Source of the DNA: Octopus sinensis
Taxonomy: Eukaryota
Assembly (NCBI RefSeq): GCF_006345805.1
Contig: NC_043007.1
Span: forward strand, 27,218,001 to 27,282,000
Direction: 5' to 3'
Length of the DNA: 64,000 bases
In this document: positions 7,500 through 50,290 of the stretch, in pieces
Layout: the number at the start of each line of letters is the position of its first letter
Position numbering within the stretch: position 1 is the first letter of the stretch
Translations under genes and position numbers: made by a program
The notes under the pieces: model-generated
Seen by the model: only the letters and a program-made list of their open reading frames with translations
Told to the model about the DNA's origin: nothing
The model's database searches: none

Positions 7500-8072
7500 A
7501 ATTCTTTTCTACTTTGGGCGCAAGGCCCGTAATTTTGGTGGGAGGGGATTAAATCGAGCCAGTACACAACTGCTACTTAATTTATCGACTCCGAAAGGAA
7601 GAAAGGCAAAGTTGACTTCGGGGGAATTTGAACTCAGATCATAAAGCATATGCGAAATACTTATTTCTTGACTGCCCACAAGGGGCTAAACACAGAGAGG
7701 ACAAACAAAGACAGACAAATGGATTAGGTCGATTATATCGACCCCAGTGCGTAACTGGTACTTATTTAATCGACACCGAAAAGATGAAAGGCAAAGTTGA
7801 CCTCGGCGCAATTTGAACTCAGAACGTAATTCCAGACGAAATACATATCTCTTTACTACCTACAAGGGGCTAAACACAGAGAAGACAAACAAAGACAGAC
7901 AAATAGATTAGGTCGATTATATCGACCCCAGTGCGTAACTGGTACTTAATTTATTGACCCCGAAAGGATGTAAGGCAAAGTCGACCTCGGCGGAGTTTGA
8001 ACTCAGAACGTAACGGCAGACGAAATACGGCTACGCATTTCGCCCGGCGTGCTAACGATTCTGCCAGCTCGC
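7500..8072 (-). mobile_element. SINE family C, three tandem units
   Basis: Repeated CTGGTACTTAATTTATCGACCCCGAAAGGATGAAAGGCAAAGTCGACC-like core. Confidence 0.85.
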
Positions 8073-8995: not shown

Positions 8996-9648
8996 CTGTT
9001 TTAATGCCTTTTTAATTAACACACCGGTTCGATTTCCACTCATTTACAAATATATATATATTTGTAAAAGTTAATGAGTGGAAATTGAACATGTTAATTA
9101 ATAAAGAGGTTTTCCTTATTAATTTGGAGGTTTTCAAACAAAAAATTTATAATATTAATTCTTCGTACTTTGCTCCTAGTTTTACAGATGTAAATTTGCG
9201 AATATGAAAATAATACGTGTATATGATGTGTTGTGAATTTATGGTAAGAAATCCCACAAAACTCTACAATATTATTAAAAATGAAGAAGAGAAGATGTTA
9301 AAATATATGAGAATTTTAATTCATGAAAACGACCGTTTCGTACAGAGATATAAGAATCATGCAAATTCATGGTTTAATTGAATTAATGAAATTAATTAAA
9401 TTAATTATATATATCTGTATAAGAAGTATAAACAAAAGATTTACAAAGAACTTGAGAATGGAAATAGCAGAATTGAATCAAGGAGATAAATATTTATCCT
9501 TATGAGAAAAAGAGATGTGAGACCAGTTAGGTATTAACTATAACTAAAGGCTATAACGGTTATTTGAAGATATAAGGATGAGAGGCTTCAGAGATGTTCC
9601 TGCTAGTCATAATTTCGCATCACCTATTCTCTGTGTGTTTAGATATGT

Positions 9649-21587: not shown

Positions 21588-22095
21588 TTTTCTACACAAA
21601 GACCGAAATTTTTGGGGGAAGAGGACAGTCGATTAGATCGACCACAGTACGCAACTGGTAATTAATTTATCGACCCCGAAAGGATAAAAGCCAAAGTTGA
21701 CCTCGGCGAAATTGGAAGTCAGAACGTAGCGGCAGACGAAATACCTATTTCTTTATTGCCCACAAGGGGCTAAATACAGAGAGGACAAACAAGGAGAGAC
21801 AATCGGATTAAATCGATTTTATCGACCCCAGTGCGTAACTGGTACTTATTTAATCGACCCCGAAAGGATAAAAGCCAAAGTCGACCTCGGCGAAATTGGA
21901 AGTCAGAACGTAGCGGCAGACGAAATACCTAGTTCTTTATTGCCCACAAGGGGCTAAATACAGAGAGGACAAACAAGGAGAGACAATCGGATTAAATCGA
22001 TTTTATCGACCCCAGTGCGTAACTGGTACTTATTTAATCGACCCCGAAAGGATGAAAGGCAAAGTCGACCTCGGCGGAATTTGAACCCAGAACGT
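21588..22095 (-). mobile_element. SINE family C, three tandem units of about 180 bp
   Basis: 21670-21850 is nearly identical to 21852-22035. Confidence 0.88.
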
Positions 22096-32742: not shown

Positions 32743-34106
32743 AATAAAATAAAAAGGTAAAAGTTTTTATTTTTCATTCCCTTCCAAAATTGCTCTTAAA
32801 TGTGGTTTTGATCGTTTTTACTGCTTCTTCTAGCGTGTAAAAATTAGCTGTTAAGGGTAGTTTTCTCTTGTGTTTAAATGTACAATATTTTATATTGAGA
32901 ATATGTTGTCTATTGACTTTTTATACGTGTTAGACCACTGGTGGGGAAAATGTCTAAAAATATTCGCCATCCTATATATTTTACGAATATGTACGTGTGT
33001 ATGTCGGTACGTTCGGTCCATAGCAATAATAGAAAACAGCCATCTAAGGTACCACGCAGTGAGTCTGAACCCAGAACCATATGGCTGAGAAGCAAGTTTC
33101 TTACCACACGCCCACACCTGCGCCTGTTAGATAACATTCGTGTAACTTCTTTGCTCAAACCCTGCCTACGCAGGATTTTCTCTAGTTCTAGATGCTTCCC
33201 AGAGCGATAAAACAAGTATCAGATAAGTACTGCGCTGGATATAGTCGATATTTCCATTGACAGCAGTGGTCCTGGCGCTATATAGCCATAATCCAGTGAT
33301 TGAAACCAGAGAAGTCTCAAACGTAAAAACAAAAAAAAAATCAGAGAAAAATACCAAAAAATAAAACAGATATGAACAATTGTTGAGAGGACATCACGTA
33401 ACATTGTGTTGATCAGAAATCGAAAATACATCCGGCATACAGTATTGACGAGAAATGTTCTATCGTTAAATCCGAGACGTTTGTATTAAGGGGAGAAGAT
33501 AAGAAACGAGTAAATAAAGTTCTCTCAAACAACGATGGGGTTCAGTTTCGTCTTATTTTACGCCATTTTTTTCTTCATATTTTCGGGAAACTGATATGGT
33601 TTCATGAAAAGAACGATATATTTGTAGGTAGAAATCAATAGAAAGTTTCATCGTATACTACGTATCTTCTGTTTTAAGGTTAGATACGCTGTGTTATGCA
33701 TAAATGCATACATATGTGTACCACACAGGCTTGTGAAAAATGTAAACCTCTCACGCACAAGATCTCAACGGCAGACAAAATCTCAGTGAACGGCCTACGT
33801 TTAATTGTTTCCCTGTACGTACGCATGCTTGTGTGAGGTTCTGAGCGTGTGTGTGTGTGTGTGTGTGGTGTGTGGTGTGTGTGTGTGAATGTGTGTGAGT
33901 GTGTGTTAATATGTGCGTGTTTGTGAGTATTTAAATGTGTGTGAATGTGTGTGAGAGAATGTGTATGAATATGTGTGTGCGTTTGTGTATGTAAATGTTT
34001 ATGTAAGTGTGTGTCTAAATGTGTGTGAATGTGTGTCAGTGTGTGTGAATGTGTGCGTGTGTGTACGTGCGTGTTTGTGCGTGTGTGTGAGTATGTTTGA
34101 ACGTGT

Positions 34107-35030
34107 GTGAATGTGTGTGTATTTATGTGAATGTGTGTGTATTTATTTGAATGTGTGTGTATTTATGTGAATGTGTGTGTATTTATTTGAATGTGTGTGT
34201 ATTTATGTGAATGTGTGTGTATTTATTTGAATGTGTGTGTATTTATGTGAATGTGTGTGTATTTATTTGAATGTGTGTGTATTTATGTGAATGTGTGTGT
34301 ATTTATTTGAATGTGTGTGTATTTATGTGAATGTGTGTGTATTTATGTGAATGTGTGTGTATTTATTTGAATGTGTGTGTGTATTTATTTGAATGTGTGT
34401 GTATTTATTGAATGTGTGTGTATTTATTTAAATGTGTGTGAATGTGTGTGTATTATGTGAATGTGTGTGTATTTATTGAATGTGTGTGTATTTATGTGAA
34501 TGTGTGTGTATTTATTTGAATGTGTGTGTATTTATGTGAATGGTGTGTATTTATGTGAATGTGTGTGTATTTATTTGAATGTGTGTGTATTTATGTGAAT
34601 GTGTGTGTATTATTTGAATGTGTGTGCATTTATGTGAATGTGTGTGTATTATGTGAATGGTGTGTATTTATTTGAATGTGTGTGTATTTATGTGAATGTG
34701 TGTGTATTATTGAATGTGTGTGGTATTTATTTGAATGTGTGTGTATTTATTTGAATGTGTGTGTATTTATTTGAATGTGTGTGTATTTATGTGAATGTGT
34801 GTGTATTTATTTGAATGTGTGTGTATTTATGTGAATGTGTGTGTATTTATTTGAATGTGTGTGTATTTATGTGAATGTGTGTGTATTTATTTGAATGTGT
34901 GTGTATTTATTTGAATGTGTGTGTATTTATTTGAATGTGTGTGTATTTATGTGAATCTGTGTGTATTTATTTGAATGTGTGTGTATTTATTTGAATGTGT
35001 GTGTATTTATGTGGATGTGTGTGTGAATGT
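34107..35030. repeat. 20-bp minisatellite TGAATGTGTGTGTATTTAT(G/T), about 45 copies
   Basis: Directly visible; grades into degenerate (TG)n on both sides. Confidence 0.95.
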
Positions 35031-35324
35031 GTGTATGAACTAGAGTGAGTGTTTGTGAACGTATGTGAGTGTGTGAATATGCGTTTCGCGCTTGTGTGTG
35101 CATTTGTATGTGCGTGTGTGTGCATTTGTATGTGCGTGTGTTTGTCTCACAGAGACACACACACTTGAAGTGGATTGAAAGACAATGGTGATATAATTGG
35201 TGGGTAGAGAGATGGAATTAAGACTGATGACTTTTCATAATATTTAATTAAAACTGGAACGTCATTCTGTATTATATGGAAATCATTTTACAAAATGAAT
35301 AGAGATTATTTCAGTGTTGCTTTA

Positions 35325-40893: not shown

Positions 40894-41386
40894 CGTATGT
40901 ATGTGTATATGTATACATGTTTTTGTATTTTTTGTATACCTATATCTCAATATATGCGTCATTATATTTGTATACATACATACACACACACACATGTCTG
41001 TTTTCTACCGGTTTTATGGACAGTACCAAGCATATATATTTTATATTTTGGATAATAAAAACATATCATAGCTTTGATCTTCAGAAGCGTTACATATTTT
41101 CAGATGTCTACGAGCTGTTTTACAATCCCCCATGGATAAATATTCCAATTCCTCTATCCACGGTGAAGCCGTAAATCGGATATTTCTTTTATATATATAT
41201 ATATTATATATATATATATATATATAATATATATATATTATATATATATCTGTGACACAATCGTTTCATTCACAAATTTGAATTCGGTGATACTAGTTGA
41301 GGATTCTAGCTCGCTCTGATACTGAGTTGAGTTGGTACCTCCTAGTATCTCAAAATTCAATATATAATCATTTATGATTATAGTAT

Positions 41387-41493
41387 TCCACGCTGAAGAG
41401 AAAAGAAGTTTCGGTAAGATAGAATTATTTAATATTTAATATTTTAATTCTTATGCTTTCCTAAAACTTGATTTCGAAACGTACGTCCGTGGA
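41387..41493 (+). ncRNA. Type I hammerhead ribozyme, array copy 1
   Basis: Stem I TCCACG(41387-92)/CGTGGA(41488-93); core CTGAAGA 41393-99; stem II GAAA..AAGTTT..AGAATTA / TAATTCT..AAACTT..TTTC (41400-41475); GAAA 41476-79; stem III C-GTAC-G (palindromic ACGTACGT); triplet GTC, predicted cut after 41487. Confidence 0.92.
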
Positions 41494-41986
41494 TAACTTT
41501 AAAAATGTTTGATAGATTGCGGTAATTCATTCTCTCTTACCTGTTTGTGTCAGCCTTCCAATTGCTGTTTTTACTGAGATCTCCCTTTTTAGTAGAAGAA
41601 ATAGCTATAACCCTTTGACTGCTATTTCTAAATTCGGTATGTGGTAAGGCAATTCGTTGCTGAACCCTTATTGCTTAGTATTACTTAAATTTTCCTCAAA
41701 TGAGGCTTTTACATGCCGAAGACTACTTGGTGTAATTGATAATTATTCCAAATTAATTAATTTCACCCTTCATTATTACGGATAACCATATTTTATCTCA
41801 GTAGATGACCACAGCATCTTGTTTTGGCTACACGCGGGTGGGAAGGGGCTGTTGACACAATCGTTTCATTCACAAATTTGAATTCGGTGATACTAGTTGA
41901 GGATTCTAGCTCGCTCTGATACTGAGTTGAGTTGGTACCTCCTAGTATCTCAAAATTCAATATATAATCATTTATGATTATAGTAT

Positions 41987-42093
41987 TCCACGCTGAAGAG
42001 AAAAGAAGTTTCGGTAAGATAGAATTATTTAATATTTAATATTTTAATTCTTATGCTTTCCTAAAACTTGATTTCGAAACGTACGTCCGTGGA
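41987..42093 (+). ncRNA. Hammerhead ribozyme, array copy 2
   Basis: Same as copy 1; CTGAAGA at 41993, cut after 42087. Confidence 0.92.
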
Positions 42094-42587
42094 TAACTTT
42101 AAAAATGTTTGATAGATTGCGGTTAATTCATTCTCTCTTACCTGTTTGTGTCAGCCTTCCAATTGCTGTTTTTACTGAGATCTCCCTTTTTAGTAGAAGA
42201 AATAGCTATAACCCTTTGACTGCTATTTCTAAATTCGGTATGTGGTAAGGCAATTCGTTGCTGAACCCTTATTGCTTAGTATTACTTAAATTTTCCTCAA
42301 ATGAGGCTTTTACATGCCGAAGACTACTTGGTGTAATTGATAATTATTCCAAATTAATTAATTTCACCCTTCATTATTACGGATAACCATATTTTATCTC
42401 AGTAGATGACCACAGCATCTTGTTTTGGCTACACGCGGGTGGGAAGGGGCTGTTGACACAATCGTTTCATTCACAAATTTGAATTCGGTGATACTAGTTG
42501 AGGATTCTAGCTCGCTCTGATACTGAGTTGAGTTGGTACCTCCTAGTATCTCAAAATTCAATATATAATCATTTATGATTATAGTAT

Positions 42588-42694
42588 TCCACGCTGAAGA
42601 GAAAAGAAGTTTCGGTAAGATAGAATTATTTAATATTTAATATTTTAATTCTTATGCTTTCCTAAAACTTGATTTCGAAACGTACGTCCGTGGA
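42588..42694 (+). ncRNA. Hammerhead ribozyme, array copy 3
   Basis: Same as copy 1; CTGAAGA at 42594, cut after 42688. Confidence 0.92.
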
Positions 42695-43187
42695 TAACTT
42701 TAAAAATGTTTGATAGATTGCGGTTAATTCATTCTCTCTTACCTGTTTGTGTCAGCCTTCCAATTGCTGTTTTTACTGAGATCTCCTTTTTAGTAGAAGA
42801 AATAGCTATAACCCTTTGACTGCTATTTCTAAATTCGGTATGTGGTAAGGCAATTCGTTGCTGAACCCTTATTGCTTAGTATTACTTAAATTTTCCTCAA
42901 ATGAGGCTTTTACATGCCGAAGACTACTTGGTGTAATTGATAATTATTCCAAATTAATTAATTTCACCCTTCATTATTACGGATAACCATATTTTATCTC
43001 AGTAGATGACCACAGCATCTTGTTTTGGCTACACGCGGGTGGGAAGGGGCTGTTGACACAATCGTTTCATTCACAAATTTGAATTCGGTGATACTAGTTG
43101 AGGATTCTAGCTCGCTCTGATACTGAGTTGAGTTGGTACCTCCTAGTATCTCAAAATTCAATATATAATCATTTATGATTATAGTAT

Positions 43188-43294
43188 TCCACGCTGAAGA
43201 GAAAAGAAGTTTCGGTAAGATAGAATTATTTAATATTTAATATTTTAATTCTTATGCTTTCCTAAAACTTGATTTCGAAACGTACGTCCGTGGA
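43188..43294 (+). ncRNA. Hammerhead ribozyme, array copy 4
   Basis: Same as copy 1; CTGAAGA at 43194, cut after 43288. Confidence 0.92.
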
Positions 43295-43786
43295 TAACTT
43301 TAAAAATGTTTGATAGATTGCGGTAATTCATTCTCTCTTACCTGTTTGTGTCAGCCTTCCAATTGCTGTTTTTACTGAGATCTCCCTTTTTAGTAGAAGA
43401 AATAGCTATAACCTTTGACTGCTATTTCTAAATTCGGTATGTGGTAAGGCAATTCGTTGCTGAACCCTTATTGCTTAGTATTACTTAAATTTTCCTCAAA
43501 TGAGGCTTTTACATGCCGAAGACTACTTGGTGTAATTGATAATTATTCCAAATTAATTAATTTCACCCTTCATTATTACGGATAACCATATTTTATCTCA
43601 GTAGATGACCACAGCATCTTGTTTTGGCTACACGCGGGTGGGAAGGGGCTGTTGACACAATCGTTTCATTCACAAATTTGAATTCGGTGATACTAGTTGA
43701 GGATTCTAGCTCGCTCTGATACTGAGTTGAGTTGGTACCTCCTAGTATCTCAAAATTCAATATATAATCATTTATGATTATAGTAT

Positions 43787-43893
43787 TCCACGCTGAAGAG
43801 AAAAGAAGTTTCGGTAAGATAGAATTATTTAATATTTAATATTTTAATTCTTATGCTTTCCTAAAACTTGATTTCGAAACGTACGTCCGTGGA
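43787..43893 (+). ncRNA. Hammerhead ribozyme, array copy 5
   Basis: Same as copy 1; CTGAAGA at 43793, cut after 43887. Confidence 0.92.
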
Positions 43894-44386
43894 TAACTTT
43901 AAAAATGTTTGATAGATTGCGGTTAATTCATTCTCTCTTACCTGTTTGTGTCAGCCTTCCAATTGCTGTTTTTACTGAGATCTCCCTTTTTAGTAGAAGA
44001 AATAGCTATAACCTTTGACTGCTATTTCTAAATTCGGTATGTGGTAAGGCAATTCGTTGCTGAACCCTTATTGCTTAGTATTACTTAAATTTTCCTCAAA
44101 TGAGGCTTTTACATGCCGAAGACTACTTGGTGTAATTGATAATTATTCCAAATTAATTAATTTCACCCTTCATTATTACGGATAACCATATTTTATCTCA
44201 GTAGATGACCACAGCATCTTGTTTTGGCTACACGCGGGTGGGAAGGGGCTGTTGACACAATCGTTTCATTCACAAATTTGAATTCGGTGATACTAGTTGA
44301 GGATTCTAGCTCGCTCTGATACTGAGTTGAGTTGGTACCTCCTAGTATCTCAAAATTCAATATATAATCATTTATGATTATAGTAT

Positions 44387-44493
44387 TCCACGCTGAAGAG
44401 AAAAGAAGTTTCGGTAAGATAGAATTATTTAATATTTAATATTTTAATTCTTATGCTTTCCTAAAACTTGATTTCGAAACGTACGTCCGTGGA
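44387..44493 (+). ncRNA. Hammerhead ribozyme, array copy 6
   Basis: Same as copy 1; CTGAAGA at 44393, cut after 44487. Confidence 0.92.
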
Positions 44494-44986
44494 TAACTTT
44501 AAAAATGTTTGATAGATTGCGGTTAATTCATTCTCTCTTACCTGTTTGTGTCAGCCTTCCAATTGCTGTTTTACTGAGATCTCCCTTTTTAGTAGAAGAA
44601 ATAGCTATAACCCTTTGACTGCTATTTCTAAATTCGGTATGTGGTAAGGCAATTCGTTGCTGAACCCTTATTGCTTAGTATTACTTAAATTTTCCTCAAA
44701 TGAGGCTTTTACATGCCGAAGACTACTTGGTGTAATTGATAATTATTCCAAATTAATTAATTTCACCCTTCATTATTACGGATAACCATATTTTATCTCA
44801 GTAGATGACCACAGCATCTTGTTTTGGCTACACGCGGGTGGGAAGGGGCTGTTGACACAATCGTTTCATTCACAAATTTGAATTCGGTGATACTAGTTGA
44901 GGATTCTAGCTCGCTCTGATACTGAGTTGAGTTGGTACCTCCTAGTATCTCAAAATTCAATATATAATCATTTATGATTATAGTAT

Positions 44987-45093
44987 TCCACGCTGAAGAG
45001 AAAAGAAGTTTCGGTAAGATAGAATTATTTAATATTTAATATTTTAATTCTTATGCTTTCCTAAAACTTGATTTCGAAACGTACGTCCGTGGA
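44987..45093 (+). ncRNA. Hammerhead ribozyme, array copy 7
   Basis: Same as copy 1; CTGAAGA at 44993, cut after 45087. Confidence 0.92.
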
Positions 45094-45586
45094 TAACTTT
45101 AAAAATGTTTGATAGATTGCGGTTAATTCATTCTCTCTTACCTGTTTGTGTCAGCCTTCCAATTGCTGTTTTTACTGAGATCTCCCTTTTTAGTAGAAGA
45201 AATAGCTATAACCTTTGACTGCTATTTCTAAATTCGGTATGTGGTAAGGCAATTCGTTGCTGAACCCTTATTGCTTAGTATTACTTAAATTTTCCTCAAA
45301 TGAGGCTTTTACATGCCGAAGACTACTTGGTGTAATTGATAATTATTCCAAATTAATTAATTTCACCCTTCATTATTACGGATAACCATATTTTATCTCA
45401 GTAGATGACCACAGCATCTTGTTTTGGCTACACGCGGGTGGGAAGGGGCTGTTGACACAATCGTTTCATTCACAAATTTGAATTCGGTGATACTAGTTGA
45501 GGATTCTAGCTCGCTCTGATACTGAGTTGAGTTGGTACCTCCTAGTATCTCAAAATTCAATATATAATCATTTATGATTATAGTAT

Positions 45587-45693
45587 TCCACGCTGAAGAG
45601 AAAAGAAGTTTCGGTAAGATAGAATTATTTAATATTTAATATTTTAATTCTTATGCTTTCCTAAAACTTGATTTCGAAACGTACGTCCGTGGA
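45587..45693 (+). ncRNA. Hammerhead ribozyme, array copy 8
   Basis: Same as copy 1; CTGAAGA at 45593, cut after 45687. Confidence 0.92.
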
Positions 45694-46186
45694 TAACTTT
45701 AAAAATGTTTGATAGATTGCGGTTAATTCATTCTCTCTTACCTGTTTGTGTCAGCCTTCCAATTGCTGTTTTACTGAGATCTCCCTTTTTAGTAGAAGAA
45801 ATAGCTATAACCCTTTGACTGCTATTTCTAAATTCGGTATGTGGTAAGGCAATTCGTTGCTGAACCCTTATTGCTTAGTATTACTTAAATTTTCCTCAAA
45901 TGAGGCTTTTACATGCCGAAGACTACTTGGTGTAATTGATAATTATTCCAAATTAATTAATTTCACCCTTCATTATTACGGATAACCATATTTTATCTCA
46001 GTAGATGACCACAGCATCTTGTTTTGGCTACACGCGGGTGGGAAGGGGCTGTTGACACAATCGTTTCATTCACAAATTTGAATTCGGTGATACTAGTTGA
46101 GGATTCTAGCTCGCTCTGATACTGAGTTGAGTTGGTACCTCCTAGTATCTCAAAATTCAATATATAATCATTTATGATTATAGTAT

Positions 46187-46293
46187 TCCACGCTGAAGAG
46201 AAAAGAAGTTTCGGTAAGATAGAATTATTTAATATTTAATATTTTAATTCTTATGCTTTCCTAAAACTTGATTTCGAAACGTACGTCCGTGGA
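46187..46293 (+). ncRNA. Hammerhead ribozyme, array copy 9 (in the final partial unit)
   Basis: Same as copy 1; CTGAAGA at 46193, cut after 46287. Confidence 0.92.
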
Positions 46294-46604
46294 TAACTTT
46301 AAAAATGTTGATAGATTGCGGTTAATTCATTCTCTCTTACCTGTTTGTGTCAGCCTTCCAATTGCTGTTTTTACTGAGATCTCCCTTTTTAGTAGAAGAA
46401 ATAGCTATAACCCTTTGACTGCTATTTCTAAATTCGGTATGTGGTAAGGCAATTCGTTGCTGAACCCTTATTGCTTAGTATATATATATATATATATTTT
46501 ACTTACATTTAGCCAATGAGTCCGGCTACAGGCCTCGATAACTACTAAATTTTTTTCTAATTTTTCATGATATTATTTTTGTAAATTTTCAATATTCCAC
46601 ATAC

Positions 46605-48746: not shown

Positions 48747-49635
48747 AAATATCTGTTTGAAACGATATTTCCTCAGCAGCCTATTGTAGCCTTTAGACGG
48801 AATAAGATTACAAAAGAATTATTGAGCTCTATATCTGACTACAAGAAAACGAACACTGGAGTCTATATGCTGTACCATAAAGAACAGACGCAAGCGAGGT
48901 AAGCGCTGTTCATTGTGCAACAACATGTGTGAAGTAATTCCATCAGAAATCATAACAGAAATGTGGAACATGTAAAGATTCCACAGAAGGTGGAACATGT
49001 AAAGATTCCCATTTGGTGTATGCTGCAGATTGCACGAAAGACAATTTATGTTGGTTGTACAACAGAACAATTAAACAAAAGTTTTGATGGGCAAAGATTC
49101 GACGTCAGGCACAGTAACAGTAGTTCGACAGAACTTGCTGAACATTTCGTTTCAAGCGGCTGCAATTCTGAAGAAGATTTGAAAGTGCATATTCTTAGGA
49201 AATATTCTGAATCTGCTTCAATTTCTCTTCTTCTCAGAATGTATGAAGAGAAATATGTTTGCGGATTATTAACATCACGCCCTCGAGGAATGAATAAGAG
49301 GACAGGAGAATATCATCAAATTTATACAAAACTGTTTGATTAAATATTCTTCCTTCTCTCTTTTTCTTTCCATTTTTTGTCGTTTTCTTTTTTCTGTGTT
49401 TTTCCTTCTCTCCTGTTATAAAATTGTAACTTAAAAACTGATGATGTAATTCCATCAACGTGTAGACGATGCTTGCTCACGTTCATACTTTACGTTTAAA
49501 TTTCTGTAATTTTGAATTTTTATCACTTCTTATTTTGAACTTGACAGACAGACGTACTGTTGAAATATCGTTTAACTATTAAAATATATAACAATCGAAT
49601 CGCCATCTTCGTCTTGACTGTTTACCTTTGTGAAA
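48747..49635 (+). mobile_element. Penelope-like element 3' fragment: linker, Cys motif, GIY-YIG endonuclease and 3' region (frameshifted)
   Basis: Translates IFPQQPIVAFRRNKITKELL, then C..RCSLC, then ORF 48963-49343 IYVGCTTEQL..LAEHF..DLKVHIL..EEKYV..LTSRPRGMN, typical of PLE GIY-YIG C-termini. Confidence 0.85.
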
Positions 49636-50290
49636 GGTTACCGTGTTGAAAGAGTTTTGAGTAGGATGTGTTCAGTGCCAAGTAGAGCAATTTTTGTGTA
49701 TGTTGTATTTATGTGAAAGTCCTGGTATATTTGTTATGTATTTGTCTGAATATCTTTTTATCATACCTAATATGCCAACTATGAGAGGAATTGTTTCTGT
49801 ATTTAGATTCCACATTCGAGCTACCTCTATTTCGAAGTCTTTGTATTTTGAAAGTTTCTCCATTTCTTTTAGAGAAACGTTGTCATATGCTGGTACTGAT
49901 ACATCAATTAGAAAGCAATTTTTCTTCATGATCTCTGACAACTATTACCAGGCCTGTTGGCCTTAATTTCTCTATCTGTGTGTACTAGCATATCCCAGAG
50001 TATGGTTGCTTTCTCGTTTTCTGTGACCTTTTCTGGTGTGTGCCTATACCATCTTTTTTTCTGTTGTTATTCCATAAAGTTGGAATAGCTTCCAGTGTAT
50101 GTAGGTCCCAACTCTGTCATGTCTGCGAATATATTCCTTCTTAGCCAGGACTGGGTAGCCAGAGACAATATGACTTATTGTTTCTTGTCCATCTCCACAT
50201 ATTCTGCAGTTGCTTGTTATGTTTCTTTACATTAAATGTTTTCGGTAATTTCTGGTGGGGAGGCTTTGGTCTTGTGCGGCAACTAAAAAA
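49636..50290 (-). mobile_element. Second RLE-type LINE fragment (CCHC knuckle plus restriction-like endonuclease), disrupted
   Basis: AAQDQSLPTRNY..CRICGDGQETISHIVSG..EYIRRHDRV..ILWD..ANRP..LIDVSVP..KEMEKLSKYKD..MW..IPLIVGILG; contains stops and frameshifts. Confidence 0.9.

Follow-up and report, generated by a model that had tools for sequence, protein, structure and literature searches.

A tandem array between two TA tracts

The window, a stretch of 64,000 nucleotides from Octopus sinensis contig NC_043007.1, contains a tandem array of 8.7 copies of a non-coding 600-bp unit on the forward strand (positions 41250-46478), which lies between an imperfect (TA)n tract of ~60 nt on the left (41190-41249) and one of ~19 nt on the right (46479-46497), neither tract being assigned to a strand. 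The units are spaced 599-601 bp apart at nine anchors starting from 41254, and nine cleavage sites are predicted, the first after 41487 and the others every ~600 bp to 46287. With phases counted from the cut, the array begins at phase ~362, ~237 nt upstream of the first cut, at a random truncation point, and ends 191-194 nt downstream of the last, at phase 191-194, which is the first of two start sites treated below. At the right junction (46465-46481, forward strand) …GCTTAG passes into the TA repeat, and the TAT directly after 46478 is common to the array and the right-hand tract. When the eight full units and the partial ninth are aligned, there are no substitutions and five variable columns, all of them one-base homopolymer indels (GGTAATT/GGTTAATT and CCC/CC are among them). 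An earlier note had described a non-integer copy number, ends ~235 nt before the first and ~195 nt after the last cleavage site, units that differ by homopolymer indels only, and (TA)n adjoining both ends, all of which agree with our measurements; the array to which it referred is real, but the limits that it gave, 41221 and 46498, fall inside or at the edge of the TA tracts. The left flank is covered by run X9 and the right by run X1, and the contigs of both end at the TA tracts.

No open reading frame of at least 120 aa lies within the array, and the longest stop-to-stop frame in the concatenated unit has 48 aa on the forward and 80 aa on the reverse strand. A frame for a reverse transcriptase (RT) with a GIY-YIG endonuclease is absent, and the array is therefore not an autonomous PLE. 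It does carry nine complete type I hammerhead motifs, where two consecutive units with such a motif are the minimum for a retrozyme. The first motif occupies 41388-41492 on the forward strand, with the cut at GTC after 41487, and consists of stem I (CCACG/CGTGG), the core CTGAAGA, a long stem II, GAAA and a palindromic stem III, ACGTACGT. On inspection the core bases and G10.1-C11.1 are intact; in the predicted fold of the monomer stems I and II form and stem III, which is either 2 bp only or the palindrome, does not (z -1.39). The Rfam hammerhead families gave no match at the gathering score anywhere in the window, probably because of an insertion of ~75 nt in stem II, so the assignment to type I rests on the consensus motif. 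The core is also found in the sister families B and D. Judged from its sequence, the array is a non-LTR retrozyme, an element type already known, and our literature searches found no retrozyme from a cephalopod.

A dispersed family with two 3' end sites

The array in the window belongs to a young repeat family with a unit of 600 letters that encodes no protein, and of which a few hundred copies exist. The 23-mer at the cut site has 1,206 exact copies in assembly G000 and its reversed control none, and a search with the array gave 254 matches in the 34 scored of 1,366 candidates, the matches listed having 98-100% identity. The family is dispersed over many loci, has a GC content under 50% and no LTR pair. 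Distances within arrays are 0.16-0.42%, about a third of the distance between arrays, and together with the dozens of dispersed loci this speaks against an old, locally expanded satellite, which would occupy few loci with diverged units and nested homogenisation. Since dozens of loci differ in length and have private variants and lawful ends, and since runs X2 and X8, made from other samples, contain the same 3' junctions as loose ends (the site-1 junction of the window in X8), it is hardly credible that copy number or homogeneity is an artefact of assembly, as the homopolymer indels and imperfect TA tracts resembling long-read error, and a 19-kb region found twice in G000, might suggest. Polishing with multi-mapping reads would also probably remove private variants rather than produce them. 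The repeated region comprises L051 and L058, which we rejected as independent copies with an identical inversion junction because ~19 kb including the flanks is duplicated at ~98%; they are counted once, and they show that unit-level variants can be scrambled by the assembly.

We located the ends of 92 array arms, 48 in a first set and 44 in a second scored with the same site windows. The 3' ends of 89/92 arms (47/48 and 42/44 by set) lie at two internal sites ~190 and ~300 nt past the cut. Site 1 covers phases ~190-200 and site 2 phases ~285-305, with a separation of ~100-110 nt, and phase 194 at site 1 is the commonest 3' end of the family (40/92 arms). The 5' ends are uniformly distributed (KS P = 0.79), and 0/92 lie within 10 nt of the cut, where 3.1 are expected, which is only a weak deficit. 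The check proposed earlier, whether start and end phases are permuted across genomic copies, thus has a one-sided outcome, with only the 5' ends random, and free circular permutation of both ends is rejected because the 3' ends are fixed. What stands of the initial reading is a recent RT insertion into (TA)n in place of an old local satellite, given the dispersed family, the fixed 3' ends and 5' ends that are random or inverted. After 87/92 of the 3' ends at least 8 of 10 bases are in TA register, as against 7.8% of window positions, and the adjacency to TA is therefore not due to chance. The best TA match of the unit, ATATATA at phase 473, is absent from the 92 3' ends, which is the reason for rejecting TA microhomology as the sole determinant of priming.

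Among 30 head-to-head arrays, 27 have one end per site (15/16 and 12/14 by set), three have one end elsewhere and none has both ends at the same site; the window array consists of a site-1 arm only. A young autonomous Hydra-type Penelope element with 960-aa frames follows the one-end-per-site rule in all 6 copies of which both ends can be seen, 4 of them clean and 2 fragmented. The family shows the marks of mobilisation by a PLE, namely two fixed internal 3' sites downstream of the hammerhead, 5' truncation, an inverted 5' arm and a microsatellite target, and its end geometry agrees with target-primed reverse transcription by an enzyme of the Penelope type.

The template of the arrays

To compare substitutions we used 61 loci, a minority of the family for which long parents of the same haplotype may be unsampled; 44 of these loci have a depth of at least 3. 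Twelve substitutions, in 11/44 loci, are private to one locus and fixed or nearly fixed across its units, and 6 of the 12 are present in both arms, including those of an array of 10.4 + 8.9 units. These array-wide private substitutions favour a monomer template that is read repeatedly, and the repeated RT passes proposed in the earlier note gain support in this form, as a monomer bottleneck followed by repeated copying. Uncut linear multimers and template jumping are possible modes as well. The window array has a substitution haplotype in common with several other loci, so that by itself it cannot separate a circle from a linear multimer, and the evidence is family-wide.

The template could also be a linear transcript that reads through a tandem array, already homogeneous, and stays uncut. 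Inserted by the same Penelope-type target priming and copied until the RT drops off, the distance copied setting the length, it would explain all of the end geometry equally well, and we regard it as an unlikely but serious candidate. In the anole PLE uncleaved RNA is the dominant substrate and the hammerhead is protein-assisted (PMC11167929), the Hydra-type element forms partial tandems over 7 kb that resemble the longest retrozyme arms (8.8 kb), and the occurrence of the window haplotype at other loci also speaks for a linear template. However, copying from such a template only shortens arrays and lets a new mutation reach a single unit, whereas the locus-private variants of long arrays are present in 9/9, 13/13, 9/9 and 15/16 units. 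Each private haplotype would still require a step from monomer to multimer somewhere, and the lack of 5' ends at the cut is a further point against this template.

Repeated jumps of a Penelope-type RT on a short linear RNA, within the same molecule or between sister monomers, could mimic a rolling circle. One insertion, L256, joins family D to family A, which indicates that the RT can switch templates, and L039 contains a step back of 72 nt. The junctions at the cut site are nevertheless seamless, 174/183 being exact and the remainder off by one base. Jumping would also mix haplotypes within arrays, and this is rare, with eight minority-shared cases, mostly ambiguous sites or the majority allele; two variants are mixed in the array L043. 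We therefore consider such jumping improbable.

It is still less probable that a retro-insertion of one or two units expanded afterwards in the DNA itself, through unequal crossover or slippage. This process would homogenise the units and preserve both ends, it is raised for retrozyme tandems in the discussion of bioRxiv 10.64898/2026.07.22.740005, and half of the less-biased C1 arms are shorter than one unit (median 0.97). Neighbouring units, though, show almost no nested partial sharing, and in head-to-head arrays both arms are often multi-unit and have private variants in common. The duplicated L051/L058 locus has 13.4 units in both assembled versions, and the youngest arrays, with a difference of 0.4% between loci, nonetheless reach 14.6 units. 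The copying of A-to-G edits back into DNA is neither supported nor excluded by the variants: those present in at least three units of set 1 include seven A>G and three T>C, but in set 2 no class stands out (A>G 8, C>T 7, G>A 6, T>C 6).

Start-site domain, proposed mechanism and related elements

Alignment with the sister families B, C and D reveals a conserved three-helix domain at phases 146-280 (example copy at 44633-44767, forward strand), in which six pairs have changed on both sides. Its two hairpins, both of which close with GGY...RCC-CT, are followed after ~5-30 nt by the two 3'-end sites. We think it probable that the window array is one young non-LTR retrozyme insertion, written into a cut (TA)n tract probably by a borrowed Penelope-type enzyme that would have read a 600-nt RNA circle 8.7 times. 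The hammerhead would self-cleave tandem transcripts, and the monomers would be ligated to circles. A Penelope-type RT/GIY-YIG protein, perhaps as a dimer, would then bind the two-hairpin domain 146-280 nt past the cut and cut (TA)n. One DNA end would prime at site 1 and the other could prime at site 2, which would give an inverted second arm, and the RT would circle with strand displacement until it drops off at a random phase. An inverted 5' arm with a second DNA end as primer is also the outcome of L1 twin priming, where microhomology guides the second primer to internal positions that vary; in the retrozyme, unlike in L1, this second position is constant and adjoins a conserved hairpin.

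The circle is weakened as an explanation by the only Penelope-type enzyme that was purified and examined in vitro, anole Poseidon PAc, which uses mainly uncleaved RNA and for which the hammerhead is dispensable for insertion (PMC11167929), and by Xenopus retrozyme dimers, 8/9 of which showed no cleavage (Li, Clavereau and Pollet, bioRxiv 10.64898/2026.07.22.740005); that stem III does not form in the predicted monomer fold also counts against it. In mussel and coral, circular forms of retrozymes accumulate, and since 2020 the hypothesis for the spread of animal retrozymes has been that RT acts on a primed circle (Cervera and de la Pena 2020, PMC7229834); the Xenopus preprint leaves the mechanism open and mentions DNA-level expansion. 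Like the metazoan non-LTR retrozymes of these two sources, the family consists of dispersed non-coding tandems that lack LTRs, have a GC content below 50%, carry a single type I hammerhead in each unit and co-occur with PLEs, and its 600-bp unit falls inside the 51-972 bp range of the preprint. The octopus element is known from DNA alone, whereas those of mussel and coral were seen as RNA circles (PMC7229834), and in contrast to the portions available of both accounts, insertion ends, start sites and array clonality are mapped here.

Purified Poseidon PAc cleaves AT-rich DNA on both strands and elongates both, and its reverse transcription begins at two positions within the RNA that lie downstream of the hammerhead (PMC11167929). 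Two such starts, AT-rich or (TA)n targets, 5' truncation, an inverted 5' arm and a tail at one end only are features that the retrozyme has in common with PLEs as known from Poseidon PAc in vitro and from the structure of Neptune, Naiad and Hydra insertions (PMC11167929, PMC8557442). Unlike PLEs, the retrozyme encodes no protein and its arrays reach 14 units; its start sites are ~100-110 nt apart versus 30-40 in the PLE, and one-end-per-site pairing is counted here (27/30), whereas the start sites in vitro were without strand difference (PMC11167929).

A bolder model, which we put forward tentatively and hold to be rather doubtful, is that a dimer of Penelope-type RT grips the two conserved hairpins of one RNA circle, one broken DNA end is primed per hairpin, and the two enzymes follow one another around the circle by strand displacement, each for as many as ten turns or more. 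The start domain, kept with covariation in at least five protein-free families, would then be a free-standing signal for recruitment of Penelope RT, and the presence of the two-site rule in an autonomous Hydra-type element would make this mechanism the general origin of the inverted arms and one-sided tails of PLEs, features whose formation is left open in PMC8557442. If this is true, each array is a single-molecule record of Penelope RT action. The family is young, numerous and countable, it offers exact RT start sites with a covarying candidate RNA binding domain, and a strict one-end-per-site rule is common to it and to the autonomous element; with the candidate enzymes, these allow a direct test in vitro of whether the template is a circle or linear, and whether one RNA or two take part.

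The same genome contains candidate enzymes whose frames are open over a long distance, among them intact frames of the Hydra type (L326, P0001) and Neptune-like ones (L142, L283). In the Neptune-like, Hydra-like, Naiad and AAT-tailed loci sampled, a small share of the thousands of candidates being scored, we found no autonomous PLE whose pLTR or tail has sequence in common with the retrozyme, and thus no pLTR-sharing parent, whereas 24/57 Xenopus families have a Repbase homologue (bioRxiv 10.64898/2026.07.22.740005). Against the covariance model the tail of the Hydra-type element reaches only 8 bits, and the two Naiad loci yielded neither a usable open frame nor a convincing match. Matches near PLE frames (L126, L133, L141, L243, L293, L372 and L373) were rejected as partners, being separate retrozyme insertions. 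A covariance-model match beside the Neptune-like copy L141 (E 0.19) belongs to another short hammerhead family, E, which has a hammerhead-like motif.

The retrozyme array and its family

The tandem retrozyme array lies at 41250-46478 (+) and consists of 8.7 units of ~600 bp, with a unit period of 599-601 bp across nine anchors, inter-unit differences confined to indels in homopolymers (five alignment columns), and (TA)n adjoining it at both ends; the array matches the earlier note's description, with a non-integer copy number, homopolymer-only indels and TA flanks. A type I hammerhead motif recurs in every unit, in + orientation, and consists of stem I CCACG/CGTGG, CTGAAGA, a long G-C-closed stem II, GAAA and a palindromic ACGTACGT stem III; the GTC cut falls after 41487 and again at ~600-bp intervals. 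This hammerhead is not called by Rfam at the gathering score, and in the predicted fold stems I and II form and stem III does not (z -1.39). From its reading frames, the 600-bp unit is without coding capacity. As read from sequence, motif and repeat structure match a metazoan non-LTR retrozyme in every defining feature that sequence can show. Other repeats in the window are a 184-bp interspersed repeat in two short tandem runs (7547-8028 and 21629-22095) and, at 33850-35034, a TG-rich minisatellite of 1.2 kb whose period is 20/40/60 bp.

With the unit as query, the 2.72-Gb assembly yielded at least 254 matches when 34 of 1,366 candidates were scored; exact copies of the cut-site 23-mer number 1,206. 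Set 1 comprises the window and 31 loci drawn from 150 listed matches (32 arrays, 48 arms, an arm being one continuous run of units); it is biased toward long, near-identical arrays, and locus L058 was left out as a duplicate of L051. Set 2 comprises 27 more loci on contig C1, from the first 100 listed 23-mer matches (30 arrays, 44 arms), mostly of an older subfamily at roughly 90-98% identity, with two short arms lower; the counts exclude the L256 pieces of family D and one internal split in L255. The set 2 arms have a median length of ~1 unit and a maximum of 10.4, so that the window array lies in the long tail. A stretch of about 19 kb that contains a 13.4-unit array occurs in two places at ~98% identity (L051, L058, L062-L065; C5 ~93.17-93.19 Mb and C16 ~42.43-42.45 Mb), either as an assembly duplicate or as a recent segmental duplication.

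The kind of element is already known; the array family gives unusually clear genomic evidence on how it may spread. The rolling-circle idea has been published as a hypothesis (PMC7229834, Discussion), as has the link of retrozymes to Penelope-like elements (PLEs; bioRxiv 10.64898/2026.07.22.740005, main text, on which novelty was judged and whose supplementary invertebrate tables could bear on it). The literature searched, most subscription papers lying outside its coverage, yielded no map of where retrozyme insertions end, no account of array clonality and no retrozyme from an octopus.

Insertion ends and TA targets

Phase 1 is taken here as the base right after the hammerhead cut. Read in hammerhead sense, 47/48 arms of set 1 and 42/44 of set 2 have their 3' end at site 1 (phase 184-203) or site 2 (phase 272-309), the windows having been defined on set 1 and reused for set 2. 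TA repeat follows the 3' end directly in 87/92 arms, against a background of 7.8%. The 5' ends are uniform over phase (KS P = 0.79, 92 arms), and none of the 92 lies within 10 nt of the cut, where 3.1 were expected. The suggestion that both ends permute is therefore wrong, since only the 5' ends are uniform. Among head-to-head arrays (two inverted arms; n = 30), the outer ends occupy different sites in 27 and the same site in none, and the remaining three each have an end at neither site (phases 122, 153 and 247); this pairing was counted on set 1 and then tested on set 2. Single-arm arrays end at site 1 in 28 of 32 cases, the window array among them. Junctions at phases 194 and 304 are also seen in contigs from other samples, as loose ends in TA (X8, and X2 + X8, respectively). 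A perfect ATATATA at phase 473 is the 3' end of no arm, and microhomology alone thus does not choose the end sites.

Irregularities were noted at L039 (7708 and 9200-9520), L033 (6560-6800) and L278 (5' flank): L039 has an internal 72-nt step-back, and some arrays scored as single-arm carry short or noisy inverted stubs, which look like abortive site-2 arms.

PLE insertions are described in PMC8557442 as showing 5' truncation, partial tandems, an inverted 5' copy and (TA)n preference, with a 30-40 bp tail often at only one end. A purified PLE protein cuts and extends both strands of AT-rich DNA and starts at two internal RNA sites (PMC11167929). The end geometry of the arrays is the PLE signature, and we regard PLE-type target-primed insertion as very probable. 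This geometry and the TA beyond the 3' ends bear out the reverse transcription into (TA)n that the earlier note had proposed.

Circular and linear templates

An arm that runs past phase 1 crosses the cut site, which requires a template continuous there; a circle would provide this, as would an uncut multimer or a seamless jump. The cut-site junctions are seamless, with 174/183 exact and the remaining ones differing by one-base changes. The arrays are clonal [substitution distance within and between arrays: set 1, 0.16% vs 0.39%; set 2, 0.42% vs 1.29%]. Of the variants confined to a single one of 61 loci, twelve are fixed or nearly so across the units of that locus; six of these are present in both arms, and one occupies 15/16 scored units of a 10.4 + 8.9-unit array. 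By linear copying alone, an array could neither grow longer nor have a new mutation pass to all of its units, implying that a monomer-to-multimer step recurs in the family, of which rolling-circle reverse transcription is the simplest form. An RNA circle as template, as previously suggested, is moderately probable, now with clonal arrays, array-wide private variants and seamless junctions in its favour.

Counting against a circle, parent arrays possibly lie outside the sampled loci, the L043 array is mixed, and assembly can scramble variants (A343G is in 13/13 units of L051 and 3/12 of its duplicate L058). The anole enzyme used mainly uncleaved RNA (PMC11167929), and 8/9 Xenopus retrozyme dimers gave no cleavage (bioRxiv 10.64898/2026.07.22.740005, main text). 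A further point against it is L256 (328-6378; C1 near 18.22 Mb), where a single insertion flanked by TA tracts joins a family D-like inverted arm and sense piece directly to a 9-unit array of family A, the family of the window array. This template switch from one retrozyme family (A) to another (D) within the same insertion implies a shared enzyme. The window array has the commonest young haplotype, and alone it cannot decide the question of the circle.

Candidate enzymes and the start domain

Young Neptune-like PLE families in the assembly have long open frames of 781 aa (RT and GIY-YIG by Pfam) and 811 aa (RT), and end in (TA)n. Their copies at L141-L156 and L283-L290 have intact 775-813 aa frames and fixed end positions in (TA)n, some with a ~40-60 nt tail; a local 5.9-kb direct duplication in L141 (1-653 and 5936-6591) encloses a short interspersed repeat together with one Neptune-like and one family E copy. 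Another young PLE family, P0001, has a 960-aa open frame that gave no Pfam match and was placed by eye, tentatively, in the Hydra clade against an excerpt of the PMC8557442 supplement. This Hydra-type family (5.6-kb tandem unit, 960-aa frames; L325-L339, e.g. L326 1474-7460) carries a CTGAAGAG hammerhead whose stem II is long and whose stem III is palindromic, and ends ~200 and ~380 nt past its cut, in (TA)n; across 15 loci, six copies show both ends, and all six have one end per site. Its junction sequences and those of the retrozymes are alike by eye, not significantly. By behaviour, the Hydra-type family is the best candidate source of the enzyme; no partner PLE sharing retrozyme sequence was found among the sampled Neptune-like, Hydra-like, Naiad and AAT-tailed loci. 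The window itself holds a Penelope-like GIY-YIG endonuclease frame fragment with a 3' UTR and a degenerate hammerhead-like motif (48933-49640, +), which shares no sequence with the array. The family of this fragment is older and abundant (1,644 candidates), most of its copies ending in (AAT)n and not in (TA)n.

Phases ~100-290 are common to family A and its sister hammerhead families B, C and D in the same assembly (B at ~75% identity). RNAalifold on eight aligned sequences predicts a long stem around hairpin 1 and an unpaired stretch containing site 1, followed by hairpin 2 just upstream of site 2. Both sides changed in 6/31 predicted pairs, and covariation is 0.23 against at most 0.09 in slid controls, from only eight related sequences whose relatedness inflates such scores. 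GGY...RCC closes both hairpins, with CT next, and family D ends 6-22 nt past the same motifs in 23/30 loci. The covariance model also picks out, weakly (E = 0.19), a fifth family, E, with a hammerhead-like motif and, at equivalent places, two end sites. We infer that this two-hairpin start domain would bind the reverse transcriptase. The domain and TA targeting are found in all four sister families, B, C, D (558-nt unit) and E (~420-nt unit) (L066-L110, L182-L241, L340-L369). Family D is very young and has long arrays, with at least 15 units in L242.
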